NCBI GenBank assembly: GCA_043228905.1
Contig: JBHGNT010000016.1
Span: 10,478,001 to 10,542,000, forward strand
DNA: 64,000 nt
From: Azolla caroliniana
Taxonomy: Eukaryota > Plantae > Polypodiophyta
Direction of reading: 5' to 3'
Part shown: piece by piece, positions 4,001 through 60,525 of the stretch
Numbering within the stretch: position 1 is the stretch's first letter
Layout: each line of letters begins with the position of its first letter
Made by a program: the position numbers and the translations under genes
The notes under the pieces: model-generated
Databases searched by the model: none
What the model was told of the DNA's origin: nothing
Seen by the model: the letters and a program-made list of their open reading frames with translations, nothing else

Positions 4001-4348
4001 TCGGATGTTGTTCAGCTCTTGCTGGAGGTGCAACTTACAGGCTGTGGTACTTGCGGCGAAAATCTTACATAGATTTTCCCAGGCCTCCTTCGGCGTCTTT
4101 GCATCCCTGATGTAGCTGAGCATCTGGTCATGCACATAGGACGCGAGGCACTATAATACTTGGCTCGCTCCTTGCTCCCATACCGGGAAGTCCTTGTGTC
4201 CAGGCTCTGGTGCTACCTCATTCGTTCCTTCCATGAAACTCCAATACCCATGCCCCAGTAGGTACTGGTGCATTTTGTATGACCAGGACACGTAGTTGCT
4301 CCGGTCGAGCTTCTCTGTAGGAAGTGAACTCGCCATACCTCTGTCCAT
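1095..4348 (-). pseudogene. E1 copia gag-pol, fragmented by stops and frameshifts (RT continues at 1-297)
   Basis: ORF pieces 4151-4348 and 3692-4135 (gag), 3038-3427 (CCHC, protease), 2441-3025, 1764-2255 (integrase), 1093-1668 (RT start). Confidence 0.9.
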
Positions 4349-24885: not shown

Positions 24886-25637
24886 GTCATCGGCTAGGGG
24901 TACTTCGAGCGGTATTTTCGCGTTCCCATGTGGCATGTTTGATAGATTTATCCATCCATTTAATTTTAAATTCTTGGATTATTTTAGTGTGTAGATTTTT
25001 TGTTTTAACATCGAGAATTCTTTCTAGTGCATGTGGTTTAGAAGATAATTCTTCAGAAGTTTCAGTTGTAATTGTATTGCCGCCAGAACCTAGACGTTCT
25101 TTTAGACGACTTACATGAAAAACTAGATTAATTTCAACGCTATCGGGAAGAACGAGGCGATGGGCGGATGAACCAATGCGTTTGAGGACTTGGAAAGGTC
25201 CACAAAACCGTGGGGCTAACTTAGCGCACTTACGCGTAGACAATGTCTTAGAATTGTGAGGTACACATAAAAATACCTTCTGTCCAGGTTTGAATACACG
25301 AGGTTGCCTAATATGATCAGCGTAATAACATGCTCTATCTTGATCAGTTTTTATATTATCTCATGCAAAATATGCAACATATCTTGCATATCCCGAAGAA
25401 AGTTTTGTGTATTTCACAACTCATCATGATGTATATTAACATCAATCGGGGCTCGTGGCTGAAAACCATACATCAACATAAAAGGACTATATCCCGTCGA
25501 CGAATGCTTGAACCTGTTATAAGCAAACTCCAAAATTGGGGGATAACGTTCCCATTTTGTTTGTTTTGCACCAACGTATGTTTGAAGCATGTCCTCAATA
25601 ATTTGATTTACTTATTCGTCTTGCCATCGGATTGAGG

Positions 25638-27537
25638 ATGATCCGTGGAGCTCATGCTCAACGTAGTTTCTAATTTCTTAAAGACTTGTGTCCAGAAGTC
25701 ACTAGTAAACTTTGGATCTCAATCACTCACGATATCCATCGGGAACCTATAAAAACGAAATAACTCGTCAATGAATTGGTAAGCCAATTCAGGAGTTGTT
25801 ATTGTGGTTTTAGTAGCAATAAATCTGACCATTTTAGTTAGTCTATCAACCACAACCCAGATGGCATCATGGCCTTTTTGGGTGCGAGGAAGGCTAACAA
25901 TAAAATCCATGGATATACTTTCCCACTTACTATTGGGAATGTCCAAGGGATGTAAAAGTCCTGCAGCCTTAAGTCGCTCGGCTTTGTTAACCTGGCATTG
26001 GTGACATTTAGTCACATATTTATGTATGTTAGTACACATCTTAGGCCAATCGAATTGAGTGGAGATGAGAACGAGTGTACGATGTATTCCAGGGTGCCTT
26101 GCTAAGGGTGCATAATGGCAGTAAAAAAGAATTCTCATTTTTTACCTCACGCAAATCTGGAACACAAACCTTCCCGTTACGGTAGATCAGCCCATCGTGC
26201 CTTACGACCTTTCAGGTCTTGTTGGTCACAAAAATATTTCAAGGACTCGTGGTCCATAGTTACCACAAAATGATCCGTGGAGCTCATGCTCAACGTAGTT
26301 TCTAATTTCTTAAAGACTTGTGTCCAGAAGTCACTAGTAAACTTTGGATCTCAATCACTCACGATATCCATCGGGAACCTATAAAAACGAAATAACTCGT
26401 CAATGAATTGGTAAGCCAATTCAGGAGTTGTTATTGTGGTTTTAGTAGCAATAAATCTGACCATTTTAGTTAGTCTATCAACCACAACCCAGATGGCATC
26501 ATGGCCTTTTTGGGTGCGAGGAAGGCTAACAATAAAATCCATGGATATACTTTCCCACTTACTATTGGGAATGTCCAAGGGATGTAAAAGTCCTGCAGCC
26601 TTAAGTCGCTCGGCTTTGTTAACCTGGCATTGGTGACATTTAGTCACATATTTATGTATGTTAGTACACATCTTAGGCCAATCGAATTGAGTGGAGATGA
26701 GAACGAGTGTACGATGTATTCCAGGGTGCCTTGCTAAGGGTGCATAATGGCAGTAAAAAAGAATTCTCATTTTTTACCTCACGCAAATCTGGAACACAAA
26801 CCTTCCCGTTACGGTAGATCAGCCCATCGTGCCTTACGACCTTTCAGGTCTTGTTGGTCACAAAAATATTTCAAGGACTCGTGGTCCATAGTTACCACAA
26901 AATGATCCGTGGAGCTCATGCTCAACGTAGTTTCTAATTTCTTAAAGACTTGTGTCCAGAAGTCACTAGTAAACTTTGGATCTCAATCACTCACGATATC
27001 CATCGGGAACCTATAAAAACGAAATAACTCGTCAATGAATTGGTAAGCCAATTCAGGAGTTGTTATTGTGGTTTTAGTAGCAATAAATCTGACCATTTTA
27101 GTTAGTCTATCAACCACAACCCAGATGGCATCATGGCCTTTTTGGGTGCGAGGAAGGCTAACAATAAAATCCATGGATATACTTTCCCACTTACTATTGG
27201 GAATGTCCAAGGGATGTAAAAGTCCTGCAGCCTTAAGTCGCTCGGCTTTGTTAACCTGGCATTGGTGACATTTAGTCACATATTTATGTATGTTAGTACA
27301 CATCTTAGGCCAATCGAATTGAGTGGAGATGAGAACGAGTGTACGATGTATTCCAGGGTGCCTTGCTAAGGGTGCATAATGGCAGTAAAAAAGAATTCTC
27401 ATTTTTTACCTCACGCAAATCTGGAACACAAACCTTCCCGTTACGGTAGATCAGCCCATCGTGCCTTACGACCTTTCAGGTCTTGTTGGTCACAAAAATA
27501 TTTCAAGGACTCGTGGTCCATAGTTACCACAAAATGA
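25638..27537. repeat. 632-bp tandem triplication of an integrase segment
   Basis: TGATCCGTGGAGCTC at 25639, 26271 and 26903. Three identical 139-aa ORFs. ATGAT microhomology at the junctions. Confidence 0.97.
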
Positions 27538-28380
27538 TTTGTATAAAGATAATGGCGCCATGTTTTGAGCGCATGTATAACTACAAATAATTCCTTTTCT
27601 TAAACTGTATACGGAGATTGAGCAAAATTAGGTTTCTTACTCTCGAATGCTATTGGTTTACCATCTTGATATAAGATAGCACATACAACATAATCGCTTG
27701 CATTAGTTTCAACCTCAAAAGGTTTTGAAGGATCAGGTAAAAGAAGCGAAGGAGCCTTGCACACCAGGTCCTTGAGTTCCTTAAAGGCGACGTCTAATGT
27801 AGCATGCCACACAATAGGTTTTGTAGACATACGCATTTGACCTTTTAGAAGATCAGTAAATGACGTCGTCAATTCAAAGTAATTATGAAGGGATTTTCGC
27901 AAAAACCCGACAAAACCAAGGAATGATCGAACTTTGGACCACTCTTGCATCGAGAAAATCCCTTGCATTCCTTGATTTTCTCGATGCAAGAACGATCAAT
28001 TTCAACTCCTCGTTCAGTTATGAGATGTCCAAGATAAGTAATAGATTTCTTGAAGAACTCTCATTTTGAGATCTTTGCGTAGAATTGCTTGTTGCGCAAT
28101 GTTTGTAAAACAACGCGGACATGTTTAGCATGTTCTTCTCATGTACGAGTATAAACTAAAATATTATCTAAGAAAATAACGACAAATTTTATCAAATTGA
28201 TCTTGGAAAATGTCATTCATTTATTGTTGAAAACTGGCCGGAGCATTGGTCAAACCAAATGGCATAACCAAACACTGATAACGGCCGTAACGTTGTCGCG
28301 TGGCACGTGACACACTTGCCAAACATCGGGATGTGCGCATCACAAGCGCGGACAAGCACCGGGCCTCTATCCGCTAGTGG

Positions 28381-29070
28381 TTATGGCGGATTGACGATGG
28401 GATTTCCGTGCCTACGGGTCGGTCGAACGGGACCACCAAGGTCTTTGACCGGGGAGAAAGAATCGGGTAAGTTGTGCCTGTAAGGAATTGGCCGTTTAGG
28501 TTTATTGTCGAGTCGTTCTTTGTGGCACGTTTGTTCACGATCACATCCTTGACTATCTTGGCCATTCCCCCCAAACGCATGTTCTTTGTTCCATGTCTCG
28601 TCATTATCGCATCCTTCTCTATCTTCCCTCTTGAGTTCACGTTCTTCGTCACATGTTTCTCCTTTGTTGAGTTTGCATCGATCCTCGTAACGACCATAGG
28701 CATGTCGATCTCGATCTCTCTCTTCAAATACTTGTTCTTCATCACATGTCTCTTCATGACCGTAGCTACGCCAATCTCGATCATCTTCATCATCGTCACC
28801 GTCGAGCAAACCATAAAAAGGTTGAGGCCCAAATCTTGACGTCAGAACCGCTTCGTACCAATCCGGAATTTCTGGATACAGTCTTTTGACTTGCCTTGCC
28901 AAGTTGAGATACTCCAACGCTCTATCCTTATCATCATGAAACATTATTTCGATGGCCTTCCTTACAAATAGAAGCAACATGAGCCTCAGACCACCTTCTA
29001 TTCTTATTGATTCCTCTAAGTCGTATACATCCAAGATCACATCCATCATTCGTGATGCCCCCATTACCAC
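28381..29070 (-). CDS. 229-aa ORF: divergent gag-like N-terminus plus acidic ETCDEE repeats, reading into the LTR remnant
   Basis: Starts just downstream of the PBS, in the gag position. Weak similarity by eye to the gags at 37163 and 61178. Confidence 0.45.
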   Translation of the reverse strand: MVMGASRMMDVILDVYDLEESIRIEGGLRLMLLLFVRKAIEIMFHDDKDRALEYLNLARQVKRLYPEIPDWYEAVLTSRFGPQPFYGLLDGDDDEDDRDWRSYGHEETCDEEQVFEERDRDRHAYGRYEDRCKLNKGETCDEERELKREDREGCDNDETWNKEHAFGGNGQDSQGCDREQTCHKERLDNKPKRPIPYRHNLPDSFSPVKDLGGPVRPTRRHGNPIVNPP

Positions 29071-29079
29071 CTTGTGTTG

Positions 29080-29097
29080 TTCACGTCAGGTTCACCA
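29080..29097 (-). promoter_or_regulatory. PBS complementary to tRNA-Trp
   Basis: TGGTGAACCTGACGTGAA, one mismatch to the complement of the plant tRNA-Trp 3' end TTCACGTCGGGTTCACCA (recalled sequence). Confidence 0.8.
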
Positions 29098-29475
29098 AAT
29101 AGATGTTGCGTGGCATGTGACACACATGCCAAACGTCAGGATGTGCGCGTCACAAGCGCGGACAAACACCGGGCCTCTATCCGCTAGTGGTTATGGAGGA
29201 TTGACGATGGGATTTCCGCGCCTACGGGTTGGTCGAACGGGACCACCAAGGTCTTTGACCGGGGAGAACGAATTGGGTGAGTTGTGCCTATAAGGTTTAT
29301 CTTCGAGTCGTTCTTTGTTGTCGAAGACACCCGAACCCGACTCAACGGTGCGCTGGATTGACGTGTAGGCAACTGAAGTAATGCACTAATGTGGTTGAGA
29401 GTGTGTGAGAGAGAGAAACGAAAATTGAGGAAGTGTTTTAGATAGATAAATAGACGACGGATTGAAATTCCAATT

Positions 29476-29533
29476 CTAGGTTTGAACCCTTGACTTTAAT
29501 TTAGAGAAACAAGACACATCACCAATAGGATAA
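29476..29533 (-). promoter_or_regulatory. tRNA-like Pol III A/B-box module in LTR, sense to the element
   Basis: Reverse complement TATCCTATTGG...GGGTTCAAACCT with tRNA-like spacing. Conserved at 59284-59337. Confidence 0.5.
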
Positions 29534-29811
29534 TTAGGTTTTCTTTTTAAAATGTCTTTATTTAATCCATAGCTTGCTTGATACATAGCTTGTTCGATTT
29601 ATCAATCGATTCCCACTTATATAGATGCCCCCATGCATATGTGCATGTGAGGGTGTAAGACATGTATACAATGCATGAAATGCATGTGATGCATGATTGC
29701 CATTTGGCGCTCATGCATCACATGTGGTGCATGATGACCATGTACCTCATCCAAGCTCTCATGTATGAGCATTCATATATGAAAAACATAATGATGATCT
29801 AAAGAAATAAC

Positions 29812-29872
29812 TTAGCCTAGTGGTAAGTCAGGTTTGTCCTATCTTGGAGGTGCAAGGTTCAATACTTGCACC
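29812..29872 (+). promoter_or_regulatory. tRNA-like Pol III A/B-box module in LTR U3, antisense to the element
   Basis: A box TAGCCTAGTGG, B box GGTTCAATAC in the stem GGTGCAAG/CTTGCACC, starts 43 nt apart. Conserved at 59568-59620. Confidence 0.6.
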
Positions 29873-31039
29873 CTTTCGTATGCTTGAAAATGCAAATAGG
29901 GTTTTGGTGTTCTCATAACATTTATATTTACAACATGCTAACGTATGAGAGTAACGATCACCCCTTTCATTTGTGTTCATATTACACCTTCTTGATTCCA
30001 CGCGATTTTCACACCATTGCCGAAAATCTGCACGACAACGCGTACAGAATGTCGTTTTAGGAACATCGTCCTCGCTTATACGAATTTGATAGTAGCCCAT
30101 ACGAAGATCAAGTTTCCTAAAAAACCAAGCTCCCTAGAGACTGTCAATTAGATTGTTGGCCCGGGGCATGGATATGAATTCTTTATCGTCACTTTATTCA
30201 GGCGTCGGTAATTAATACACATACGCCATGTGCCCTCTTTCTTTTTTACCAAGAGAATAGCTCCACCACATGGAAATTTACTATGACGTATATAAGCCAT
30301 TCGTAAATAGTCCTTTAGCTACTTAGATACCTCATCCTCTTCGGATCGACTTAAGAGATAAGGAGGTATACTTATTGGTGCAATGCCAGGTACAATATGT
30401 ATACGATGTTCTATATTATTTTTAGGAGGTAACTCATGTGGTAGTTCACTCAGAAAAACATCACGAAAATCATTTAGGATTTTATCGAGTTGTTGTTATT
30501 CAAAATATGATAATGGAACCGAGACATTATCGATATAGTAAACGTGAATGTCCGGATCAAGTACACAATAAAATAAAGTAGAACAAGAAAACTCGGATAT
30601 TGATGGCAAGGAAACAATCGAAAGATAGTGTTTTTTAACACATTGAATAAAATGACTACAATTGTTCAGTACAACAGTAATTGCATGATGAACCCAATGA
30701 ATTGATAAAAAAGAGTTTTCATTAAAAAACCATGGATAACCCAAGATTACATCACTGGTACAAAGATTCATTACATGGAAGTCTACTTCCTCTATATAAG
30801 TATCAATAGAAATTCCTAATGAATGAATCGCCCCGTTGATGTATTGTACTATTCCATCAGCCAAGTGCACCCTATAGGTGTGATCACTTACAGTGGGTTG
30901 AATTCCCCATATCTGAACCAAACGATCATTGACAAAATTGTGTGAGCTTCCTGAATCAAATAAAAATTCACATCCATTGATATACTCGTTTGTAGGTGGC
31001 GGCCTTACTCCCTAGTTCTCGGCCAACATATGCAATCTT

Positions 31040-33809
31040 TAGGCTTACCCCCTGGAGCTCAAACCGGGACTTTTCCCACACCTATTCTAGAGACTTCGGT
31101 GGCTGGCCCCAAGAGCCCACGTGAGACCGGAGAGACGGAAGATGGTGGCGGCAAAGCGGACGATCGAAACGACGGTAAGGAAGGTCATAGCGGACGGAGG
31201 AGAGACCCCTCGATACCAGGGCCGGAGACTATGACGGTTGCGTTCGAATGCCAACATAAGACTGGAGAGAAGGGCGGTGGCCGTGAGGTGGCGTGGCCCG
31301 GAGTGAACACGTACGAAGATAAGGATGCGAGGCCCAAAACAGGCATTTACGAGAGGACCGATGGAGAGGTCGGGAGCGGCAAAGAGGACAGAGTCGGGAA
31401 CTGACCCGACCGGAAGATGAACCGGTCGATAATCCGACACGACCGGAAGACAACGCGTGTAAGAAGATTGGAGTGGGGTCCGGTCAACTGGGCCCGAACC
31501 GAAGAAGAGACGGCAAGGCCGGATTTGTTCAGACAAACATGTACCGGCCGGTTACGATTACGGAAGGGAGCCGACCAAACCGGAACTCGATCGGCCGAGA
31601 CCAATTCGGGCGAAGGCTAAGTCGGCATGATTGGAGGTTGAGGCGAATGAGCCACAACACCCAGTGGGAGCCGGTGAGCGCAAGAAGGAGGCCAAGCATG
31701 CACAAGGAGTACGACTCGGTGGGAGACCAAGAGCGAGAGGGACCCTCCACACCTATTCTTGAGACTTTGGCGGTTGCGGATCGACGTAAGACCAAAGAGA
31801 CAACGGATGGCGACGAGGAGTCGGAGACCAGAACGGACGAGGCTACCGGAACGGGTACCCGGTGCGTGAAGGCAGATGAGCACGGCCAAGACGGCAAGCC
31901 GGAGTCAGTCGGGACTACGGCGGGAGAAGCGTGTAACACGAAGCATGCATTACGGCATAGAACGGAGCATGCACTACAGCTGACGAAGGGCCAAGAAGCA
32001 AACATGCACCCTGAAGAGCGGCAACGAGTGACCGGCAACGGCAGACCAGTCGAGCCTTTGAGAGGCAAGCACGCGGCAAGAGACGGAGCGGTGAGTTGCC
32101 GGGATTGGCGGATGAACAACGAGGGCGGAGGATGGTGCGTGGAGAGCAAAGAACTACGCATCGGGGAGAGAAAAAGCGTCGTCCCGGAGGACGTGCAAGG
32201 CCAAGCGGACCAAGAGGATGCGAGTTGGGATGAAGCGGTAACGAGAGCCACGAAGAACCCCGACACGAAGGTCGGGATGACGATACGCTCTACTACGAGA
32301 GAGCATGGAGAGCAAGGGAGAATCGGGGTGCGCGTAATGGGGTCACCTAAGGACCAAAGAATGAGCGTGCATTTGGAGGAGCCGCAACGAGTGATTGACG
32401 ATGACGGTCGGAAGAAGCCTTCGAGAGGCAAGCGCGGGACAACGGACGGTGCGACGAGACGCCAAGATCGACGGAACGAGACGGGCATGATCGGCATGAA
32501 CGAAGGATTGTGTCTAGGAAAACGGAGGGGATGCGCGGAGAACAACGGGGTACACACCGGGAAGAGAAAATGTGGCGGCTTCCCGGAGGGCATGCAAGGC
32601 CAAGCGGGCCAAGAGGGCCAAGAGGGCACAAGTCGAGGCGAGGCGGTAACGAGAGCCTCGAGGGACACCGACACGGAGGTCAGGTTGATGGTACGCTCTA
32701 CGGCAAGAGAGCACGACGGGCAAAGGAGAGGCAAGGAACGCGGAATGGGGTCGCCTAAGGGCCAAAGAATGAGCGCATATTCGGGAGACAACAAGGGCGC
32801 ATGGAAAGAGCCTACGAAAGGTGAGCGCGGAGCGGAGGGAATCTGCACGAGGTGTTCGAGACGAAGAGAAGATCGAGCCGGAGATAGAACACAAGCGGTA
32901 CGCGAGGGGCGCAATCCGGCGAGCAAACGGGGTGACCAAGGGCCTAATCGAAGGACCTACGTGGCGGACAAAGAAAGAGTGACTGGATCGGCAATGACGT
33001 TCGGGAGGACCGACCGGGGAGGAAGGTGCGTGCGGTGGATATGGTGGTTCGGATGGAGTCGATGTTTCGGGGACACATGGTGCACGTGGTGGATCGGTTG
33101 GAGCCTTCGGCTCGAGGACGTGCGACGGATACAGTGGAACGGGATGCTACAACGGTTCGTGTGGAAGGGACAGGCATGCTCGAAATGGAAAACGAAGCCG
33201 AGCAAGGCCAATGAGGACACGGTGGACCTTGGTTTTATCACCATGGTCAAAAAATCTCGCCTCTTCTCCTTTCTTGGCACATACCGGTGGATGTGCGGTT
33301 TGGTGGGGGCGGATGTCGTGAAGATTTTCGTCCATAGGCGGAAACCAGGGTGGAATAGGCAAATCGGTGTATAGAAATGGTGTATAGAAATAAGAGGGGA
33401 AATTCTATCCCACATTGTAAGGTTCCTCCCTCCTTGGGCTATAAAAGGAAGGGAGGGGTCACTTATGAAGGGGTTGCCTATTTTGAGGGAGAGAGGCATA
33501 CCACTTAGGTCGAGGGTTTCCTATTCGGTTTTAGGGTTTCGGTTAGGGTTTTCTTCTTGGGTTTTCCTTTAGGGTTTTTCGGATAGTCGTTTGGTGCGGC
33601 CATGGCGGCCACCATTGTAAAGCGTTTATGTTTCCTTAAACTAACTTGTTGAGTATCTTGCCTCCGTCTATTCTGTGTTATTGCCTTATTCTCTCTCTTC
33701 TCCTCTTGAGCTAAGCCTCCATATCCTATCTTATTCTTTCTCCTCTACTCCCTAGTCAGAGACCCCGTGGTCCCGCCCCTTCTACATGCATGCGCGTAGC
33801 AACGTGACA
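31040..33809 (+). mobile_element. 3' part of a Trp-family gypsy element: purine-rich internal region, PPT, 3' LTR 33314-33809
   Basis: PPT-like TGGTGGGGGCGGA then TGTCGTGAAGATTTTC...CAACGTGACA, with TATAAAA at ~33440. The internal region shares motifs with 38230-38530 and 59880-60525. Confidence 0.75.
31473..33374 (+). other. 633-codon low-complexity ORF (465-codon ORF on the opposite strand) in the element's 3' internal region; coding status unproven
   Basis: From the ORF track. Internal repeat PEDVQGQADQE...MGSPKDQRMS / PEGMQGQAGQE...MGSPKGQRMS. The T-poor strand makes chance ORFs more likely. Confidence 0.3.
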
Positions 33810-36155: not shown

Positions 36156-38530
36156 TGTCGTGAGAATACACTCCCTCTTGTAAAGATTATATAAAGATAG
36201 TGGGTGCCGAATAGGAATGATAGCCAGGCAGGATATCCCTCGAAGTGGGGGGGGGGGGGGGGGGATATTTATCCCACATTGTATCATCCTTCCCTCCTTG
36301 GACCATAAAACAGGGAGGGGTCTCTTGTAAAGGGGTTGCCCATTTTTAGGTAGGAGTGTATGCCGTTAGATTTAGGGTTGGGTAGTTTTCTCTTATTCTT
36401 ATTTTCTTAGGTTTCTACTTTGGTCTCCTTCACCCTATCTCATTTTAGCGTTTCATTTTGGCAGGTTTCTTCTTCCTCTTCTTTCTTTTGGGTGTTCTTC
36501 TTGGAATGGTAGTTTAGCGTTTCTCGGGGATCCTATCTCTCTTCTTGGTTAGGGTTTAGTCGGGTTTAGAGCTTGCATGCTCTAAGGGTTTCCGTTTGTA
36601 GTTGTGTCTCTTGTGCAAGACCCCACTCGCGTAGGCGAGCCTGAGTGCTCCTAGACTGGTGGCTTGGCGGCATACAGTTGTAGTACTTCACCAAGAAGGC
36701 CCATTTTCCGTGCAAGACTTCCACTCGTGTAGGCGAGCCTGAGTGCTCCCCGACTGGTGCTTGCATGTGGACAGTTGATGTATATGTTCTGTACTAGCAT
36801 TGTAATTTCATGGTCTTGTATATACATTCATAAGAAGTTATGCATATCTGTGTCTCTGTTGGTGTTAGGTGTCTTTCTTTCTTTCCGTTTCTATACATAA
36901 GTAACATGTGTTGAGTCGGTGTTGTGCATATGCTCTCACTCACTCTCTCCCTCTCTCCCTCTTTCTGGTTCGGTAGCATCCAGTACGCATCTGGAATTGT
37001 ACTGGCTTGTGCCACAACCGGTGCAGCCGGTTCCGGACAGAGTCGGTCTCCCGACATCCATCTCTTCCTGGTCCATGACCTTGGTGGACCTGCCCGATCT
37101 GGCACATGCACGCGGAATACCGACATCTTTGGGGAACCTGATGTGAAAGGGCAGCAAGGGAGGATGGAGTTGGAAGACGATGACTTTGCGGAGATGGTGG
37201 CTGAAGTGGTGATCGAGTTCAGACGAGTGACGATGAGACGAGAAGCAAAGCAACAAGCTGTCAAGTGTGTGGTCGAAAGAGTCGGCCATTTTAACGGGGA
37301 CAAAGTCCCATTCTACTTCGAACCCTACAACTCGGAGATGGACATCCAAAGTGTAGACGAGGCGTTCAGGCTGAAGTTCTTTTGTCGGGTCATAGGCGAC
37401 CGTATGCACACGTAAGTAAAGGAGCTTCGAGAAGAACATAGTTTGTGGGAGGCCTTCAAAGAGGCGCTCCTACAGGCACACAGAGGATGCCCGAAGAGCC
37501 GGGGACAACGAGACTTCGGCCAGTGGGTTGCATCGGCGAAGACCCACCAGGGCGCAACGAAGGCGTTCCTAGAGTTCAGACGACACTTTGCTTGGCTCCC
37601 GGACCGGGAACAAAGACTGGTGGGGGTGGACAAATTCCTGCTATTCATTAGGTTGATCGACCAAGCGGAACGGGAGGCCATCAGAATGGAGCTCGAAGAT
37701 GACGATGGAGCGAATGGCCTTACCGAGGACTGGTCGAAAGTTGGACGAGTATGCCAATGGTTGGATTAAGAGCGGTCTGCTAAAGGAAAAGGGAAGATGA
37801 CATGTGGCGGCGCATTATCAGAGCAGGGAGTGGGCGCACAACGAGATGGAATAGTGAAGATCAATGTCGAGGCCCTGGTCCGGGAAGCGTACGATGCTCT
37901 TATAGCGATGGTCAAGGAAGACGAGAGATCCGGGGCGCAGTCGGATTCCGGACATCTAGAGCTAATCGGCCTTCTGAACGAGACGGATGTGGCCCATGCG
38001 GAGGTAGTATGACGCTACGATGGTACCACGGGAGAGGGTGTGGAACAAGTCACCCTCTCAGCTTGCGGAGAAACACCGACCAAGGATAAGGTTGGATTTG
38101 GGGAGATAATGATCGCGGTTTCGGATAGAGACCGATGGGTTCAGGCACCACTGCCTGAAACTATGGACTTTGGAGAGGCAAGCCCAAGTTGGGCTTGTGC
38201 GATCGGAGAAGAGATAGCTTCCACCTACCCCATCTAAGAAGAGTCGGTGGCTATAGACAAGTTGTTGGATGCCATACATACGAAATCGTTCCCTACATCG
38301 TTTCCGGAGACTTCGGCAGTTCGGCCAATGTCGCAACGTGAGACCGGAGAGATGGAAGGCGGCAACAAGGAGTCCTGGCACGATGCCAGCGAAGATGCAT
38401 TGGAGATGGCTTGCGAGGAGGCCAAGGATGGAGTCGTGGTGGAGCGAAAGAAAGAGGTGAGCGGCGATGCCGAAAAGGGCGGAGCTGGGAGTCAACCTGA
38501 TCGGGAGTCGATCCGGTCAGCACTCCGATT
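36156..38530 (+). mobile_element. Trp-PBS gypsy 5' part: LTR 36156-37125, PBS 37130-37147, decayed gag ~37163-37770, low-complexity tail
   Basis: TGTCG...CCGACA termini, PBS TGGGGAACCTGATGTGAA, gag VGHFNGDKV...LELEDDDG-type motif...LTEDW homologous to the 61178 gag. Confidence 0.8.
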
Positions 38531-47317: not shown

Positions 47318-49263
47318 ATACCCTTGGTTTTTTAATAAAAACCCTTCTTTGTTCATTGATTGGGTTAATCACTCAATTACATTTGAACTTAATAATTGTA
47401 ACCATTTTATTCAATGTTCCAAACTCCATTCTCGTTCACTTGTGTCTTCTAAATCTTTACGTGAGTATTCTAGTTCATTAATTTATTTGTGTGAAATTGA
47501 TCCTGCGCTTCAATTTTATTATTTTAATATTGACGTCACACAATTACCACATTATGAACAACGATTAGTCAGTCTATTTTAGACGATTTTCAGGACGATT
47601 TTCCTCACGAATTGCCGCTTACTTTACCACCAAAACGTAATGTGGACCATCAAATTGAACTCATCCCCAGTGCTGCTCCTATGAGCATTCCACCTTATCG
47701 ACTCAGTCGATTAGAAGAGTATGAGATCACTAAACAACTTAAGGAATACTTCGTATGGGCCACATTAGGTATAGTAAATCACCTTGGGGTGCGCCAGTTC
47801 TATTAGTTAAGAAGAAGGAAGGTTCATGGTGAATGTGCATCAATTATCGCCGTTTGAATAAAATGACAATTAAAAATGCATATATGTTACCTCGTGCCGA
47901 TCATTTGATTCATCATTTGCATGGGGCCCGATATTTTACAAAAATTGACTTCTGAAAAGGTTATCCATCAGCTTCGCATTGCGAGGATGGTATTCCTAAA
48001 ACCACTTTTCGTACACGCTATGACTAATGTTGTAGCCACATTCCAACAAGCGATGAATGATATTTTCCGAGATCAACTCGGTGATTTTGTTGTCGTCTTC
48101 TTGGATGATATTTTGATATATAGTTGTACCTTGCAAGGTCATGTTCAACATGTTCGATTTGTTTTGTAAAATTTGTGTGACAACTCTTTCCATGCAAAAC
48201 ATTCAAAATGTGATTTTTTCCAAAAATCTATTGTGTACCTAGGTCATTTAATTACGGAAAATGGCGTTGAAATTGAACCTTATCGTATTCAAAACGTTAA
48301 AATTTGGCCCATTCCTCATAATATTCATGAATTGCGATCATTCTTAGGGTTTGTTGGATTTTTACGAAAATCAATTCGTAACTATTCCACATTGACTGCA
48401 CCATTAACTGACCTTTTAAAAGGTCATCCACGTAAGTTTGTTAAACCGATTGCATGGAATGAACAACTTGACAAATCATTTGAGACATTCAAAGAGCATG
48501 TGTGTCACACTCTCACTTTTCTATTACCAGACCTTTCTAAGCCTTTCTCAATCAAAATCGATGCTAGTGATTATGCTATTGGTGCTGTTCTTTATCAAGG
48601 CAGTCACCCTATTGCTTTGTGTGAAAGTGTTTTCAGAATTCAAGGTATTGAAGTCTACAAAAATATAAGGTATGGAGCATTCACACCCGAAGGCCAAGAA
48701 CACGAGCTAAGGTTTCAAGTATAAGTCAAACTAAAAACAAGAAAGATGGAGAAAAGTAAAAGAAGGAAAAAGCAGACCACCAAAACGTAGTCAGAAACAA
48801 ATGCTCATAACTCTCTCGTTTGACACCCAAATATCACGTGTAAATATGGGTTAGAAAGCTTATGACGAGAGCTATCCGTAGCTTTTTAAAACTCTAAATT
48901 TGGAGCATGGATGAGGGAGATATGACGATTAGAAGATCGTTGTGTCATAGCTAAGAATAGGAGATGGAAAAGCTCTAAAAAAAGCGTGGAAAAGAAAGCA
49001 AGCGAAACTTATCTACTAGAGGAGAACTTCATATAAAGCAAGAAGAGTGAGGTGGTGAGAAGAGAGCCTTTTTCTTGTGGGGTTTTTCTTGCCTATTCAT
49101 GTAGTGCGTTTTTCTAGTTATCAATTGATCCTTGTAGGCTTGAGTTTATGTATCTTCTTTCTCTTGTTTCTATGATCATCACTCCTTATTAATATATCTT
49201 TGTAGATTTGGATTTCTATATCTTCCTTCTCTCTCTTTTCTATCATCTTCTCTCTTTTCATTT

Positions 49264-49281
49264 TGGCGCTCCAGGGAGGGT
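49264..49281 (+). promoter_or_regulatory. PBS for a non-Met tRNA, possibly tRNA-Asn
   Basis: TGGCGCTCCAGGGAGGGT implies a tRNA ending CCCTCCCTGGAGCG-CCA (G discriminator). The isoacceptor identity is inferred. Confidence 0.6.
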
Positions 49282-50083
49282 CGATCCTTTCCATATAACG
49301 GGAGGAACGGTTGTCCACTAATTGATGGTTGGATCTACCGATTCATCATCAAACTAATGGCACGATATGGAGTTCGCGATGCGACAGATCTACGAAGAGA
49401 ACTTTTCCAATTGCGTATGGTTTCACCAATGTGCTACCTCGAGTATGAGAAGACGTTTTTGGATATATGGTCCACTTGGATTGGACTTGTTGGAGGCATT
49501 GAAGATGTATACTTCAAGATGGAAAGATTCAAAGCAGGGCTAGATCCATATTTTCAATATGAAGTGCATATGAAGTACCCAAGGTCTTTCCATGATTTGC
49601 TTCGAGTATGTCAAAGTTATGATCAACAATTGAAGAAGTTGTTATTCGGTGAAGCATATGGAGTATCGGCGTCATATACCATAAATCCAAGCTATAATAA
49701 TTGTGGATCGGTCATGAGCCAACAACCAACATACTTGCAATGTCCGATTCAACAGGTTCCCTCATATCATTATTCTAATTTTTGGAGTTATAATGATGTC
49801 TATGAAGGTGATTCCAGAGACTATGAAGAAGAGGTGATGAATGTGGAGTTCCCCCATCTAGTTCATGAGGGCAACCATGATATAAAGAATGATGATGTGA
49901 AAGACGAATCTAATGAGATTGTTATGAGAAGCGATGTTATGGATGGTGATGCCAATGTACATCATGTTGAGAGCATTATTGATACAACAAGCGATATGGT
50001 GGTTGATGATGAATATGTGCAAGATGAAATGGAAGATATGACAAAAGAAGTTGTTGATGGTGAAGTACCCACAACGAAGTTGC

Positions 50084-50539
50084 TGTCATAACTAGACTCG
50101 AACCCATAACCTTTTGTTACACGGGTCGAGACTTTACCATTAGGTTATGAATTGTAATTTGAAGGATATTATTTTCATTTAGGTTTTATTGGGAAATTGA
50201 TGTATATTCCAGATTTCTCTGGAACATTCTAGAAACTTCAGGAGTATTCCTGAAGACACTATAAAAGGAGGCGCAAGGCATTAGTTCGAACCAAATCGGT
50301 TCAACGCCAGTCTTAAGCCTTCTAACTACTGTTGTATATCTTCCTTCATATAATACATATATCTTTCGCATCATCATTCTCTCTCTCTCTCTCTCTCTCT
50401 CACTCACTCATTCCTTCTCTCAAAAGTTCGACACCTCTCATAGTACTAATCCTTCTCTGTCTTAGTACTATTCCCCAACAATAGTACTAATCCTTCTTTT
50501 AGTACTAATTCCTTCTCTGCCTTAATAGAGTTCCTGACA
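50084..50539 (+). repeat. 5' LTR of intact chromovirus
   Basis: TGTCA...TGACA termini, TATAAAA at ~50260, CT tract. Confidence 0.97.
50086..50150 (-). promoter_or_regulatory. tRNA-like A/B-box module at the LTR start, antisense (repeated at ~55388-55452)
   Basis: Reverse complement TCATAACCTAATGGTAAAG...ATGGGTTCGAGTCTAGTTATGA, with A and B starts 43 nt apart and a closing TCATAAC/GTTATGA stem. Confidence 0.6.
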
Positions 50540-50541
50540 GT

Positions 50542-50553
50542 TTGAACCGATTT
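50542..50553 (+). promoter_or_regulatory. Self-priming PBS
   Basis: TTGAACCGATTT is the exact reverse complement of AAATCGGTTCAA at 50293-50304, about 30 nt after the LTR TATA box. There is no TGG tRNA-type PBS. Confidence 0.85.
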
Positions 50554-50639
50554 TGGGTGCCTGTCTGGTCTTTTCTCTCCCTCTTCCTTCTGTCTCCCTC
50601 CTTTCCTACTAGTCTCTTATTTCCCTTTTCCTTCATCCC

Positions 50640-51809
50640 ATGGCCACCGTTAGCGCTGAAGAGTATCAATCCGTTTTCTCGGAATTTCAATGCTTGAAAG
50701 AGAAGTTTCATGCTTTGGAACAAGAAAATCAACGCTTGTTGGGGGATCTTCAGCAAATTTCCTTAGAAAAGCAGCAAACGCAACAACAGCATGGGGAACT
50801 TGCGTTACGCGTGCAACAACTCGAAGCAACCATCGTAGCAATGCAACAACAAGGGCACGGAGCACAAGGGATTCATAAAGAACCCAAGATTGGCCTTCCC
50901 ACGAAGTTCGATGGAACGCGATCGCAGTTTAGAGGGTTTCTTAACCAGGTACGGTTAGTTATTCAAATGCATCCGTCCCGATATCCCACCGATGCATCAC
51001 GAGTGGGTTTAGTAGGCACGTTGTTAAATGGCTCAGCATTAGCATGGTTCGCTCCGCTACTAGAAAAGGAATCTCCAGTACTAAATAATTTTGAAGAATT
51101 CATAAGTGAGTTTAAAGCATGTTTTGGAGATACTGACAGCATAAGGACTGCAATCAACAAAATCTGGCGATTACGCCAAGGTGACCGTCCAGCCTCCGCA
51201 TATGCTGCAGATTTCCGACTACTCGCCGCCGATATCCCCTGGGATGATCAAGCATTGATGGAGCAGTTCCGCTATGGTCTACGCAACGATGTCAAGGATT
51301 TACTCTTGACTTTCCCTGAAGAGCCAAAATCATTAACAGAAGCAATCAGTCGAGCGGTAAGATGTGACAACCGCCTCTTCGAGCGACGTTCGGAACGACA
51401 ATTTCAGATGCCGAGGGCAAGATCCGAGCCTACCTATGCCTCAGTGGTAGCAAAACCTTTTCAAAGGGAGTCACATAATGCGCCTCCAGTAAGTACTCCA
51501 ACTCCAATGGAAATTGACACTACACGTCGTCGTGGGCCGCTATCGGAGGAGGAAAAGCAACGACGCCGAACAAACCGATTATGCCTTTATTGCGGTGGAC
51601 CAGGGCATATCGCGATAAACTGTCCCCATAGACCAAGAAGGCAGGTAAACCAAGTCGTTGTTAGTTCTGACTATACTAAACCCGAGTCTATTTCAGTAGG
51701 AATCTCTGATAGTCCTCATAGTCATAATAGTCCTAATAGTACTAATAGTCCGAATCTCGCAAACAAATTTGATGTCCTTAGCCAATTAGAAGAAGAGTTA
51801 AACGACTAA
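50640..51809 (+). CDS. gag: Gag polyprotein (coiled coil, retrotransposon capsid, CCHC knuckle)
   Basis: 389-aa ORF with PKIGLPTKFDG, ALAWF, LRQG, CLYCGGPGHIAINC. Confidence 0.95.
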   Translation: MATVSAEEYQSVFSEFQCLKEKFHALEQENQRLLGDLQQISLEKQQTQQQHGELALRVQQLEATIVAMQQQGHGAQGIHKEPKIGLPTKFDGTRSQFRGFLNQVRLVIQMHPSRYPTDASRVGLVGTLLNGSALAWFAPLLEKESPVLNNFEEFISEFKACFGDTDSIRTAINKIWRLRQGDRPASAYAADFRLLAADIPWDDQALMEQFRYGLRNDVKDLLLTFPEEPKSLTEAISRAVRCDNRLFERRSERQFQMPRARSEPTYASVVAKPFQRESHNAPPVSTPTPMEIDTTRRRGPLSEEEKQRRRTNRLCLYCGGPGHIAINCPHRPRRQVNQVVVSSDYTKPESISVGISDSPHSHNSPNSTNSPNLANKFDVLSQLEEELND

Positions 51810-54800
51810 GTCCAGCCAAAATAGGAGCCGTTTGGTTGGACAGCCCTAGATCTGTGCAGCCCATTAGTGGTTCCATTCCCTCTAAGCAAGTTAGTGATGT
51901 GTTCGTAGCCCAAGTAGCAGTTAGTACTAAAAGTACCCCTCCAGTACATACCTTAGCCCTTCTAGATTCCGGAGCTAATTCTTGCTTCATGGATAGGAAT
52001 TTTTCCCGAGCTCATCAGATATCTCTCAGAAAGCTCCCATGTCCAGCCTCAATAGTAGTCATTGATGGTCGTCCCATTGCTTCTGGTAATATCATAGAAG
52101 AGTCGGAACCCGTTAATATTGTCCTAGATAACTTAACATGTGTAGTATCATTTAATATTATTAGTATTCCAGAACATCCCATAGTTTTAGGATTACCATG
52201 GTTCGAGTTACATAACCCAGACATAGATTGGAGGACAAGGGAAATCCGGTTGCGACAAACCCAAGGATCTACCCAGAAGGTTGCAACCATTTCGCTACAT
52301 CAGTTGCGTGAGGAAGGGCGCAAGGAGGAAATGTTTCTCTTCGCAATATCAGTACAACCCTCCAGCACCACCAAAGAGGAGTCCACCGTTCAACTTCCCG
52401 AGAAGTATCGTCAGTATGTTGATGTGTTCGATAAAGTACAAGCCAACACACTTCCTCATCATCGGCCGTACGATTGCGCCATCGACTTACAACCGGGAAA
52501 AGAGCCGCCATGGGGGCCGATCTACAATTTGTCACCAACCGAGCTAGAAGTCCTCCGAGCCTATATAGAGGAGAATTTGGAGAACGGTTTCATTCGGCAT
52601 TCGAAATCTCCAGCCGGTGCACCCATTTTCTTCGTCAAGAAAAAAGATGGCTCGCTTCGACTCGTTGTAGATTACCGTGGCTTGAATAAGGTCACAGTAA
52701 GAAATAGGTATGCTCTTCCCCTTATCTCAAGTCTTTTAGAACGGATCAACGGTGCCAGGTTCTTTACGAAGATCGACTTACGAGGAGCCTATAACCTCGT
52801 ACGGATCCGACCAGGAGATGAATGGAAGACCGCGTTTCGCACCAGATATGGGCACTTCGAGTATACGGTCATGCCGTTCGGACTCACTAATGCGCCGGCA
52901 GTCTTCCAGCACATGGCGAATGATATATTTCGAGATCTCTTGGATGATTTTTTGATCATCTATTTGGATGATCTACTGGTTTATTCAAAGACCCAAGAAG
53001 AACATGATTCTCATGTACTATTAGTACTAAAACGACTTCGAGAACATGGTCTGTATGCAAAGTTAGAGAAATGTAGTTTCGGGTGCAACCAAGTGGAATT
53101 TCTCGGCTATGTCATCTCCTCAGAAGGCATATCTATGGACCCAGCCAAGGTGAAAACGGTGATAGAATGGCACACTCCGCGTTCGGTGCGGGATGTGCAA
53201 TGCTTCCTAGGCTTTGCAAATTTTTACCGGAAGTTCATACAAAATTACTCAAAAATTGTGCTGCCTCTCACACAGCTCACCAGGAAGGGACAATCATTCA
53301 TTTGGTCTAAAGAGACGGACATGGCTTTCGAGAGTCTTAAGAAGGCGTTTACATCAGCTCCAATTTTAGGTCATGTGGATCCGGAAAAACCATTCATTAT
53401 CGAAGCTGACGCATCGGATTTCGCATTGGGGAGCATTCTGTCACAACAGGGTAACGACGAGAAGCTACATCCTGTGGCTTTCCACTCCCGTAAGTTTGAC
53501 GCCGCCGAAATCAACTACGAAATTCATGATAAAGAGCTATTAGCAATAGTTGATTCTTTTATGCAATGGAGGCATTTCCTGGAGGGATCTCCTCATCAGG
53601 TCACTGTATTCAGTGACCACAAGAACCTTGCCTACTTTCAAGATGCTCGTGTACTGAATCGACGTCAAGCTCGGTGGGCCCACTTCCTCACACGCTTCGA
53701 CTTCAAAATTACATATCGTCCGGGGAAGCACCAAGGGAAGGCAGATGCATTATCACGGCGTTCGTATCTAACACCACGTCCCGGTGAGCCAGCTTTCGAT
53801 AACCAGAAGCAAGTAATCTTGGGTCCAGCACGACTGCAAGCAGCACAGGTCTTTGACATGCCCGTGGATTCCGACATTACCAATACTATACGTGAGGACT
53901 TGAAGACTGACGCTTTCGCCCAAGCTATACTAGCACAAATTGACCCCTCTCGAGCGTCATGTTCACAATCACAATCACCAGGTACGGATTATCGGCAATT
54001 CAAATACTGTGATGGATTACTCTTCTTTAAAGAACTTTTGTATGTTCCTAATGGTTCTTGCCGCCTTCGAGTAGTACAAAATTGCCATGACACATATACA
54101 GCAGGACATTTTGGTAGTACTAAAACATTAGATTTAGTACAACGATCATTCTGGTGGCCCCGTATGCGACAATTTGTCGAAGATTTTGTTCGGACTTGCG
54201 ATACATGCTGCAGAGCGAAAATGCCAAGACATCATCCATATGGTTTATTAGAACCATTACCAATTCCAAGCAAGCCATGGCAATCCATTGCTCTTGACTT
54301 CATTACAGATCTTCCAGTCTCTAAGGGATTCAGTGCGATTCTCACAGTGGTGGATCGATATACGAAGATGGCTCATTTCTTACCATGTACTAAAGAAATA
54401 TCTAGTGAAGACACCGCCGAAATTGTCATGCGGGAAGTATGTCGGCATCATGGACTCCCTGATAATATCATCAACGATCGTGGACCCCAGTTTGTGTCAA
54501 AATTCTGGAAGCACCTTTTTAAAATGCTGAAGGTCACTTGTAACCTCTCCTCCGGCTACCACCCACAAACCGACGGTCAAGCCGAACGAACAAATCAAAC
54601 ACTGGAGCAGTATCTGCGGTGCTTTCTCAACTATCATCAGAATGACTGGGCAGATATTCTTCAGTTCGCCGAATTTGCCTATAATAACACTATCCACGCA
54701 TCGACTAAAGTCACGCCATTCTACGCTTATACGGGATATCATCCCTGGTGGTGTGTCCTTGAAACCCCAGAAGTGTCCACAAATCCTTGCGCGGAGGATC

Positions 54801-55393: not shown

Positions 55394-55843
55394 CTAGACT
55401 CGAACCCATAACCTTTTGTTACACGGGTCGAGACTTTACCATTAGGTTATGAATTGTAATTTGAAGGATATTATTTTCATTTAGGTTTTATTGGGAAATT
55501 GATGTATATTCCAGATTTCTCTGGAACATTCTAGAAACTTCAGGAGTATTCCTGAAGACACTATAAAAGGAGGCGCAAGGCATTAGTTCGAACCAAATCG
55601 GTTCAACGCCAGTCTTAAGCCTTCTAACTACTGTTGTATATCTTCCTTCATATAATACATATATCTTTCGCATCATCATTCTCTCTCTCTCTCTCTCTCT
55701 CTCTCACTCACTCATTCCTTCTCTCAAAAGTTCGACACCTCTCATAGTACTAATCCTTCTCTGTCTTAGTACTATTCCCCAACAATAGTACTAATCCTTC
55801 TTTTAGTACTAATTCCTTCTCTGCCTTAATAGAGTTCCTGACA
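55386..55843 (+). repeat. 3' LTR of intact chromovirus
   Basis: Direct repeat of 50084-50539. Confidence 0.97.
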
Positions 55844-57053: not shown

Positions 57054-57694
57054 TGTGAAAGTGTTTTCAGAATTCAAGGTATTGAAGTCTACAAAAATAT
57101 AAGGTATGGAGCATTCACACCCGAAGGCCAAGAACACGAGCTAAGGTTTCAAGTATAAGTCAAACTAAAAACAAGAAAGATGGAGAAAAGTAAAAGAAGG
57201 AAAAAGCAGACCACCAAAACGCAGTCAGAAACAAATGCTCGTAACTCTCTCGTTTGACACCCAAATATCACGTGTAAATATGGGTTAGAAAGCTTATGAC
57301 GAGAGCTATCCGTAGCTTTTTAAAACTCTAAATTTGGAGCATGGATGAGGGAGATATGACGATTAGAAGATCGTTGTGTCATAGCTAAGAATAGGAGATG
57401 GAAAAGCTCTAAAAAAAGCGTGGAAAAGAAAGCAAGCGAAACTTATCTACTAGAGGAGAACTTCATATAAAGCAAGAAGAGTGAGGTGGTGAGAAGAGAG
57501 CCTTTTTCTTGTGGGGTTTTTCTTGCCTATTCATGTAGTGCGTTTTTCTAGTGATCAATTGATCCTTGTAGGCTTGAGTTTATGTATCTTCTTTCTCTTG
57601 TTTCTATGATCATCACTCCTTATTAATATATCTTTGTAGATTTGGATTTCTATATCTTCCTTCTCTCTCTTTTCTATCATCTTCTCTCTTTTCA
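57054..57694 (+). repeat. 3' LTR of the non-autonomous element
   Basis: Direct repeat of 48620-49260. Confidence 0.95.
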
Positions 57695-58549: not shown

Positions 58550-60525
58550 ACACCAATTGGGCCAATAGGGCGAAGAAGGCATTAAGGAGGGGACCGACTC
58601 GGGAGTTGGGGAAAATGTGTGGTGACCCGAAGAAATACACAATGAAGAGCGGAACAAGATGCGTGCAATATGTCTGTGTAAGGGCCAAGTAACGAGCACA
58701 AAGGGGATCGATTGCGATGAGGAGTCAAAAGGTGTTCGACGTGCAGCGGTGATGGATCGAGGGAGCGGTTGGGTCGAAAAAGGTAGGGACAAGGTGCGAT
58801 ACCCGACATGCGGTCGGGAAGAACGGGAACCCGTGCCGCACATGGATATGAAGAGGCTAGAGAGCGGTACATTGGTACCACGGGAGAGGGTGCGGATCGA
58901 GCCACCCTCTCGACATGCGGAGAAAGAACGACCAGGGACAAGGTCGAGGCCGGAGATGCGATGATCACGTTCGGGAAGGGACGAACATGTCCAAAATGTC
59001 GATTCGGGATAGGCAAGCAAGGTCGAAGCTTGTGTGGAAGAGATAGCCATGGGCCGCGACGTCGAGCGAAAGTAGCTATGGACAGAGGCTGGGTAGGTGA
59101 TCCTACGACGATCTTCACACCGATCCAGAGATTCCAATGTCGAGGAAATCCTCGTGTGTTCGTGAAATGAAGCGGGACCACCGAGGTCCTGGACCGGAAG
59201 GATTCGATGTTTTTAGCAGCGTAACCGAGAAAGTATTGAAGATAGATAGATGGATGAAGAGAGAGAGAGAGAGATTGAGATAGAGATTGAACCCGTGACT
59301 TTAGTTTTATGAGACAAGATACATCACCATTAGGATAACTCCGATCTTTGATTAAAAGTTTCTTTTTTACTTACATCACTTGCCTCCCCTACACAAGCCC
59401 AACTATAGACTTTATAGGTCTGTCCATGCAAAAACCATGGGCTAAAACCACGAGCTGAAACCATGGGCTAAAACCATGGTTTTGTGCCCACTTTTTCTAT
59501 ATGTTTGCTTCCTACAAAATACTGAATATTAAAAGAAAATATACAAATTCTAAAGCACTTAGTAGTGTCTTTAGTGGTAAGTTAATTTGTCTCTTATCAT
59601 GGAGGTGCAAGGTTCAAGTCTTTTTTTTACCCCTATGTATGCACTTAAGTGTTACTAGGCTTTAGTCTTATTTTTATATTACAATTGAGCGCACATCACA
59701 CGTGCTCATGTTTAACTTTACATCTAGCTTTTCTTTTACGATTCTCATTTCGGTCCTATTTACAACATGCTAGCGTATGCGTGTGACCTTCACCCCTTTC
59801 ACATGTGGACATTGCACCTTCTCAATTTCGTTCGTTGCACACAATTTTCACATCGTTGCTGAAAATCTTCATGACACCGGTAGTCAGCCCGAGAGCCGGC
59901 GTGAGACCTAGAGAGATGGACGGTGGCGGCAGGTGAATGAAATCTTAAGATGTGATTTTACAGAGATCTACTCACTAATCCGAAGACTCCGCTGATCCGG
60001 CCCGAGAGCCGACGTGAGAACGACACAGATGTACGGTGGTGGTAGGTGAACGGGATCCTACTATGTGGTGAAATGTGAATGAGCAATCCTACGATGATCC
60101 TCAGACCGATCCCGAGACTCCGACGGTCCGGCCTAAGAGCCGACGTGAGACCAGGAGAGATGGATGGTGGCGGCAGGTGAACGGGATCCGACAAAGCAAG
60201 GACTGCAAGAGCAGAAAGAGGTATAAGGCCGGTGATGTGGCCATGAACCGGAAATGGACCCGATCGGCATGGTCAGAAGAACGAAGGATGGACGCGCAAG
60301 GTGCACGGGTCGTAGGCCTCAAAAGACAGAAGGCTCGAGAGGGATCCTCCACACCGGTTCTAGAGACCTCAGCATTTCGACTATCATGGCAACGTAAGAC
60401 TGAAGAAATGGAAGGTGGCGGTGATGGGACGAAGGCAGTAGCAACGGAGGCACCGAGCAACCAAGGTATCGCGAGGACAACGGAGGCCAAACGGGCCGAA
60501 ACGGACAAGGGTGATCCCTATACGG
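58550..60525 (+). mobile_element. Purine-rich internal region of a Trp-family element with degenerate ~110-125-bp tandem units, split by a solo LTR
   Basis: GTTGEGADRATLSTCGE is homologous to ~38025-38090. CCCGAGAGCC..CGTGAGA..GGTGGCGGCAGGTGAA recurs at ~59888, 60001 and 60132. Confidence 0.6.
59138..59876 (-). mobile_element. Solo LTR of the Trp-PBS gypsy family
   Basis: TGTCGAGG...CATGACA termini, homologous in blocks to 29104-30037. Flanks CCAA/CCGG fit a deaminated 4-bp TSD. Confidence 0.8.

Follow-up and report, generated by a model that had tools for sequence, protein, structure and literature searches.

A tRNA-like unit with the A and B boxes of a Pol III promoter lies antisense in the U3 of a family of Phygy-type gypsy LTRs. 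Judged by alignment, this unit (module 1) is a conserved island between old lineages of the family, kept as a whole unit and not box by box. We tentatively favour the reading that it is a tRNA-derived cassette, captured antisense in U3 and kept as a possible TFIIIC/Pol III docking site upstream of the Pol II TATA. A second unit (module 2) faces the other way behind the TATA in some of the LTRs; the pair of insulators that the two units had been predicted to form is a subfamily state, without functional support so far. The analysis started from a stretch of 64,000 nt of Azolla caroliniana DNA, which is referred to as the window.

The element carrying LTR_A

The window is a pile of nested LTR retrotransposons, in which copia remnants, one intact chromodomain gypsy and several non-chromovirus gypsy pieces are found. 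By themselves, the element types would suggest a moss host. One of the insertions is an internally deleted Phygy-type element, which lies in the RT of an older chromovirus, with chromovirus pol on both sides (24923-28304 and 30163-30819). It has the following features.

28294..30037, minus strand: internally deleted Phygy-type LTR element
28290-28293 (ACGT) and 30038-30041 (ACGC): 4-bp target duplication flanking the element
29104..30037, minus strand: 5' LTR (LTR_A), 934 bp, TG...CA, with an 'A-type' U3 containing CATG-rich palindromes
29080..29097, minus strand: primer-binding site, 6 nt behind LTR_A
28524..29064, minus strand: start of an acidic ORF in the position of gag, cut by the deletion
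28294..28523, minus strand: remnant of the 3' LTR, U5 end only (last 230 bp), 87% identical to LTR_A

The outer border of LTR_A is marked by the loose ends of contigs, which stop at 30037, and the deletion runs from the acidic ORF to the last 230 bp of the 3' LTR. The original prediction placed the modules in a gypsy LTR. This stands, the gypsy being of Phygy type; the LTR does not, however, belong to the neighbouring pol, because the element interrupts the RT of that pol and is bounded by a 4-bp duplication, and so was inserted into it. Pfam gives no match for the acidic ORF, which has just five homologues, all unnamed. It is homologous to the 679-aa ORF of a pol-less element (locus L014, see below), and no alignment was obtained with a neighbouring Phygy-type gag.

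Two other features of the pile were observed. In an otherwise decayed chromovirus, 632 bp of integrase are present in three exact head-to-tail copies (25638-27538), which reflect either a very recent tandem duplication or an assembly artefact. An element with 640-bp LTRs that are 99.4% identical (48620-57695, 5-bp TSD CTTTG, gag-like interior without pol) sits in a gypsy RNase H and hosts the intact chromovirus; a diverged relative of this element begins near 38530.

Two tRNA-like modules around a TATA-like motif

LTR_A and a solo LTR elsewhere in the window (LTR_B) have a similar organization:

29813..29872, plus strand: module 1 of LTR_A, tRNA-like unit, antisense in U3
29813-29823, plus strand: its A box, TAGCCTAGTGG
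29856-29865, plus strand: its B box, GGTTCAATAC; A and B boxes start 43 nt apart
29849-29872: 8-bp hairpin of module 1, with the B box in the loop
29617-29624, minus strand: TATA-like motif of LTR_A, CTATATAA, predicted Pol II promoter
29479..29532, minus strand: module 2 of LTR_A, sense tRNA-like unit behind the TATA
29532-29522, minus strand: its A box, TATCCTATTGG, with 2 mismatches
29488-29479, minus strand: its B box, GGTTCAAACC, intact; A and B boxes start 44 nt apart
59138..59876, minus strand: solo LTR (LTR_B), 739 bp, with a 'B-type' U3 containing AAAACCATGG repeats; target duplication CCAA / CCGG
59566..59620, plus strand: module 1 of LTR_B, with an A-like box at 59566-59577 and a B box at 59611-59620
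59411-59418, minus strand: TATA-like motif of LTR_B, CCTATAAA
59284..59337, minus strand: module 2 of LTR_B, with the A box at 59337-59327 and the B box at 59293-59284

The prediction holds for the four modules and for the two TATA-like motifs, with coordinates that differ by 1-3 nt (1 nt for the TATA of LTR_A). Their description as tRNA-type A/B units with tRNA-like spacing also holds, given the distances of 43 and 44 nt in LTR_A. The layout of a type 2 Pol III promoter is found in module 1 of LTR_A (0+1 mismatches, 43 nt) and is weaker in the other copies; in module 1 of LTR_B the 5' half of the A box has diverged. LTR_B retains both modules around its TATA, as had been claimed, and alignment of the two LTRs gives conserved blocks at the U3 start, module 1 and module 2, with a middle that cannot be aligned, which amounts to retention between diverged types. 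The spacer of module 1 is 0.79 identical between the window copies.

Contigs cover both modules in all four runs of the LTR_A set and in all three DNA runs of the LTR_B set; the runs carry four organism labels besides the first, and only the cover and the letters read were used. Over the modules the summed contig depth exceeds that of the adjoining flanks, and in the LTR_B set it is lower over module 2 than over module 1, with the proviso that contig depth cannot rank parts. One further run, guessed to be RNA, has two contigs on LTR_B and gives no evidence either way.

Directly upstream of the TATA, the A-type U3 contains CATG/TGCA-rich palindromic repeats (29629-29740) and the B-type U3 likewise contains the AAAACCATGG repeats. 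From their sequence, both arrays are candidate Pol II enhancers, and we take them to be RY-like, that is, to resemble RY elements.

Chance level and tRNA identity

The textbook A+B consensus has five sites with at most 2 mismatches in total in the window, compared with a mean of 0.5 in shuffled sequence (maximum 3 in 40 shuffles). With the A/B spacing set to 40-47, five sites compare with 0.075 in the shuffles. Two of the five are modules of LTR_A and LTR_B, two are the module of the chromovirus LTR described below, and one lies in copia coding DNA; module 2 of LTR_A needs 3 mismatches, and module 1 of LTR_B is missed by the textbook consensus. A pattern tuned post hoc on the four modules gives 6 sites compared with 0.11. 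The expected excess over shuffled sequence is thus found for the textbook consensus and not for a loose SINE-type pattern, which is not enriched in the window (13 vs 10.3).

The modules were rejected as tRNA genes. ARAGORN detects no tRNA gene in the window or in any of the 19 related loci described below, and Rfam returns no tRNA match at E values up to 10; cloverleaf folding of the modules was rejected after folding tests. An origin of the LTR segment from 5S rRNA finds no Rfam 5S match.

Module 1 in related LTRs

Metagenomes were scanned with a seed of 21 nt covering the module-1 B box, requiring an exact match to the window copies. There were 20 matches, distributed over 19 loci; the loci belong to six assembly accessions and may not represent independent lineages. 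All 20 sit in LTRs related to LTR_A or LTR_B and none is free-standing; no free-standing SINE copy was found outside an LTR context among the scan matches (0/20), and the window has no extra copy of module 1. We regard capture from a tRNA gene or a SINE head as the likely origin of the unit. The seed picks copies by their B box, so that only features beyond the seed are informative, and neither B-box conservation nor the share of Phygy LTRs with module 1 can be read from an exact-match scan.

Outside the seed, the 3' half of the A box (ARTGG) is retained in 18/20 copies, and its distance to GGTTC is 37-38 nt in 17 of these 18. The 5' half is more variable (n=20), being canonical in three copies, enlarged by one base in nine, diverged in six and deleted in two. 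C61 of the B box is retained in 18/20. In all of the assessable related LTRs (13/13) a TATA block recurs, at a distance of 139-275 nt from module 1.

Between A-type and B-type U3 the A-box block and the spacer are each 0.64 identical, compared with 0.43-0.44 after shuffling, whereas the flanks of module 1 (0.46-0.51) are at the shuffled level (0.45-0.50). As box and spacer are kept equally and the flanks are not kept, the island comprises the whole unit, and excess conservation of the boxes over their spacer is not seen. Nor are the modules more conserved than their flanks within a type: identities in within-type pairs are 0.80-0.91 for module 1, 0.75-0.96 for module 2 and mostly 0.82-0.96 for the flanks, and all blocks are about 0.64 identical within the B-type LTRs.

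A run of four or more T is a Pol III terminator, and the T run behind module 1 of LTR_B had been listed among its features. It is decay specific to this copy: most of the contig depth has C or G at positions 59624, 59627 and 59628, and the run is absent from the 93%-identical copy in L014. In the 20/22 copies with a T4 behind the B box of module 1, the distance to the first one ranges from 1 to 143 nt, which does not agree with a conserved terminator.

Neither module is present in the Phygy-type LTRs that start at 33314, 36156 and 60526 in the window, and module 1 was not found in viral contigs. Insertions 5' of the module-1 A box do not pile up in the 19 loci (judged by eye). In L011, on the 5' side of the A box, an insert of about 60 bp with inverted ends breaks the A box.

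Distribution and probable origin of module 2

Thirteen of the 20 LTRs reach through the TATA block into R/U5 and can be assessed for module 2; the other seven are short or interrupted. Module 2 is present in three of the 13 (L007 and both LTRs of L014), and the remaining ten have CAT/CTT-rich sequence in its place. All A-type LTRs seen carry it, including a copy with a decayed A box in L017, compared with 2/12 B-type LTRs (L005 typed by eye). The divergent pair is therefore present in five LTRs, two in the window and three in the loci, of both U3 types, with an A-box to A-box distance that varies between about 215 and 280 nt. The bracketing of the TATA by paired modules, put forward as a feature of the family, does not extend to the 10/13 LTRs that lack module 2, and a two-sided insulator is consequently no general feature of the family. 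The A boxes of module 2 are poor: G3 is found in none of six copies, and four of the six have at least 2 mismatches (by eye). Module 2 falls 65-92 nt downstream of the TATA, within sequence that is predicted to be transcribed and where an insulator would be oddly placed.

When the window and the 19 loci (101,537 bases) are searched with a profile built from the sequence of module 1 alone, the profile matches its 22 training copies and four copies of module 2 (11-21 bits), and nothing further. The modules resemble each other along the spacer and for about 25 nt downstream of the B box. This likeness holds for the set when the boxes are left out; taken singly, it holds for only 2/5 copies once the last 10 nt are also trimmed. 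Since the module-1 profile finds module 2 and the likeness extends beyond the boxes, module 2 probably arose long ago by inverted duplication of module 1.

Phygy-type marks and elements without pol

An identical 18-nt primer-binding site is found in the LTR_A element, L009, L014, L015 and two other elements of the window. We tentatively take it to be of the tRNA-Trp type. At the two insertions in the window the target duplication fits the pattern NCGN, one copy of each having undergone G-to-A decay, and it does so too in 4/5 host flanks of the loci (ACGG, ACGC, GCGT, ACGC; the fifth is CTGT). In the description of Phygy (Neumann 2019, PMC6317226), the target duplication is 4 bp long with the pattern NCGN, and 81% of 186 elements have a primer site for tRNA-Trp; our putative assignment of the primer follows the Phygy row of that work. 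By the duplication and the putative primer type, the LTR_A/LTR_B family would be Phygy-type. The duplication, and probably the primer type, are shared; the difference is that Phygy elements as described are coding and 7.7-10 kb long (PMC6317226), whereas the carriers seen here are deleted or lack pol.

No module-bearing LTR could be linked to a pol of its own, and the two near-complete carriers, L014 and L015, are without pol. L014 (about 3.9 kb) has one ORF of 679 aa, acidic, repeat-rich and without Pfam match. Its 5' LTR is A-type and its 3' LTR B-type, both within a single GCGT duplication (205-4100), and the element is either a recombinant or an assembly chimera. L015 is a unit of about 2.6 kb with a G/A-rich interior of 1.96 kb. 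In L017 an A-type U3 is joined to a B-type U5. The mixed LTRs of L014 and the mixed U3/U5 of L017 indicate that blocks have been exchanged between LTRs.

G/A-rich interiors at 31090-33300, 37900-38500 and 58547-60520 of the window, and at 700-2660 of L015, contain recurring 'CCACAC...TCTAGAGACTTCGGC' units, and apparently form a non-coding, non-autonomous Phygy-type class. The sense strand of L015 has a single T4 run over the 1.96 kb.

A similar module in a chromovirus

The intact chromovirus of the window (50085-55843) is young, with LTRs that are 99.6% identical, a 5-bp TSD (GTTGC), a gag of 398 aa and a pol of 1203 aa with chromodomain. Its LTRs contain an A/B module at the U3 start:

50095..50147, minus strand: antisense A/B module of the chromovirus, with a second copy at 55397-55449

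The sequence following the LTR is complementary to a stretch just behind the TATA (50293-50304 / 50542-50553). A self-priming layout of this kind has been reported for Tcn1 (Neumann 2019, PMC6317226), and from its sequence the chromovirus appears to be of the self-priming type; with this layout, a tRNA primer is not the reason for its module. The module-1 profile does not match the chromovirus module, whose spacer weakly resembles that of module 2 (p about 0.02). The chromovirus module is absent from the 19 loci. No relative of the chromovirus was found in viral contigs; the genome contigs contain two distant chromovirus-like sequences, one of which reaches an LTR, and this LTR has no A/B module. 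The presence of an antisense U3 module in an unrelated chromovirus suggests repeated retention. Chromovirus-like integrase also occurs in two bacterial MAG records (L020, L021), probably as eukaryotic contamination.

Relation to known systems

Helenus, or TRIMp3, elements carry a tRNA-like unit with boxes A and B in the LTR, mostly not a working tRNA, for which a SINE insertion was proposed as origin and a function was inferred from sequence (Kojima 2024, PMC10886601). The same paper notes in passing that not a few Repbase LTRs contain tRNA-like sequence. Helenus elements are TRIMs of 311-1263 bp with LTRs of up to 323 bp, and the single plant family, from Selaginella, has a 120-bp LTR, a sense unit and a 5-bp TSD (PMC10886601). 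The LTRs described here share the tRNA-like A/B unit. They differ in length (685-934 bp) and in their TATA block, the elements being 3.3-3.9 kb with a 4-bp TSD; moreover their common unit runs antisense, and in some LTRs a second, inverted unit accompanies it. Membership in Helenus was rejected on size (L014 about 3.9 kb with its 679-aa ORF, L015 about 2.6 kb) and orientation. A terminator-free sense path to the 3' LTR, as in Helenus, was likewise not found, module 1 being antisense and T4+ runs being present.

In yeasts, tRNA genes act as barriers, and tDNA and ETC sites are barriers of the TFIIIC type. These barriers, and boundaries formed by SINEs (mouse B2, PMC8136502), resemble the present arrangement in that A/B boxes adjoin a Pol II promoter; the difference is that the candidate site described here lies inside a transposon's own LTR. 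Cassandra, as summarized in PMC10886601, is also a non-autonomous LTR element of plants whose LTR contains promoter motifs of the Pol III type. Its motifs are derived from 5S, run in the sense direction and make the genomic RNA, whereas here they are of tRNA type and mainly antisense, with T runs in the way. In Ty3, a bipartite primer-binding site places tRNA-complementary sequence in the U3 of a gypsy RNA (PMC5371799), as would be the case here, except that module 1 does not match the T stem of the primer. The titles and abstract beginnings of open-access papers that were searched contained nothing on LTRs of mosses with tRNA-like units, nor on a pair of inverted units flanking the TATA, and PMC7466625 and PMC13570524 have nothing to add on this subject.

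Possible role of module 1

In the reading that we tentatively favour, a piece of a tRNA gene or SINE head captured antisense in U3 would have given rise to module 1. TFIIIC would bind its B box, TFIIIB would be loaded onto the A/T-rich tract that separates module 1 from the TATA, and the loaded factors would help to keep the element's Pol II promoter accessible. The output would be at most short antisense RNAs without a fixed end, and the genomic RNA would still come from Pol II; module 2 would be a dispensable inverted copy in certain subfamilies, now decaying. Binding, loading and chromatin effect in this model are drawn from established Pol III biology. The orientation, spacing and retention of module 1, and its alignability between otherwise unalignable U3 types, are observed and consistent with docking; a spacer as conserved as the A box is not what pure box binding predicts. 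A neutral relic comes close behind as a possible account. A SINE head or tRNA fragment in an ancestral U3 would have been inverted-duplicated once and spread by LTR recombination, with no function, which agrees with the lack of box-specific or within-type excess conservation, with the A box being deleted or broken in several copies, with the 10/13 LTRs without module 2, and with the exchange of blocks between types in L014 and L017. It fits less well with a module 1 that stayed alignable at fixed spacing while both flanks turned over between U3 types, with a module of the same orientation and place in a second lineage, and with the score of 0/20 for free-standing copies. It may even be that Phygy and the Tcn1-like chromoviruses, though unrelated, each captured an outward-facing U3 cassette and use TFIIIC/TFIIIB to hold the Pol II promoter open in heterochromatin, one Phygy branch having doubled the cassette into a divergent pair that would form a cis-acting anti-silencing device in the LTR; we consider this wider proposal rather doubtful.

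Alternatively, the unit may be conserved for a hairpin, of RNA or of DNA, that would form in the 3' U3 of the genomic RNA and act in packaging, strand transfer or RNA stability, its tRNA origin being incidental. The 8-bp arm 3' of the B box, which lies outside the seed, pairs with GGTGYAAG at 7-8/8 positions in 13/20 copies, and it is the whole unit rather than the boxes alone that is conserved. This explanation is nevertheless unlikely: the sole consensus helix has no compensatory change (one of its sides being in the seed), the folding z-scores of modules 1 and 2 range from -1.4 to +0.55, and the A box is retained although it lies outside the hairpin. The original proposal, that two divergent pseudo-tRNA genes jointly insulate the Pol II promoter from silencing, is quite unlikely. 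The divergent geometry is real in five LTRs of both U3 types, and copies of a mouse SINE act as chromatin boundaries, where CTCF is named (PMC8136502). Against this, module 2 occurs in only 3/13 assessable LTRs, with poor A boxes, the A-to-A distance is not constant, and module 2 lies in the predicted transcribed region. The expected shielding from methylation-type decay did not emerge either, in what is a weak test of low power: in three within-type pairs, C-to-T/G-to-A transitions at CG/CHG sites number 5/34 between the modules and 32/176 outside (p=0.81). A split primer site as in Ty3 (PMC5371799), in which the primer tRNA would pair, through its D and T arms, with the complement of module 1 in the 3' U3, needs an antisense orientation in U3, as is found here, and is still very improbable. 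Module 1 agrees at 1/5 positions (by eye) with the T stem that the primer site of the element implies, and the chromovirus, which has a module of this kind, appears to be self-priming. The comparison covers the T stem, no primer tRNA having been found in the viral contigs or in the genome contigs. Least credible is a Cassandra/Helenus mode, in which Pol III would make the genomic RNA from module 2. This module is sense and near the predicted start, and the near-complete carriers L014 and L015 are without pol; however, L014 has eight T4+ runs from module 2 to the PPT and six more in the 3' U3, and with T runs in the path a Pol III genomic RNA is unlikely. The interiors measure 2-2.4 kb, L015 has no module 2, and the TATA block is retained in 13/13 assessable LTRs. 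The analogy with Cassandra that had been drawn is not supported, module 1 being antisense and T4+ runs occurring in both U3 and interior.

tRNA-like pieces in LTRs have so far been described for miniature elements and read as promoters of the genomic RNA. The common unit described here faces the wrong way for genomic RNA and lies in long LTRs that keep their TATA; if it is under selection, it would therefore have another role, such as opening chromatin for the element's Pol II promoter, as in the docking model. If it is a relic, it matters only for annotating tRNAs and SINEs in mosses. Within the same genomes, LTRs that lack both modules, carry module 1 alone or carry the pair provide natural controls, and make the protection of plant transposon promoters by Pol III factors directly testable with existing methylome and accessibility data.
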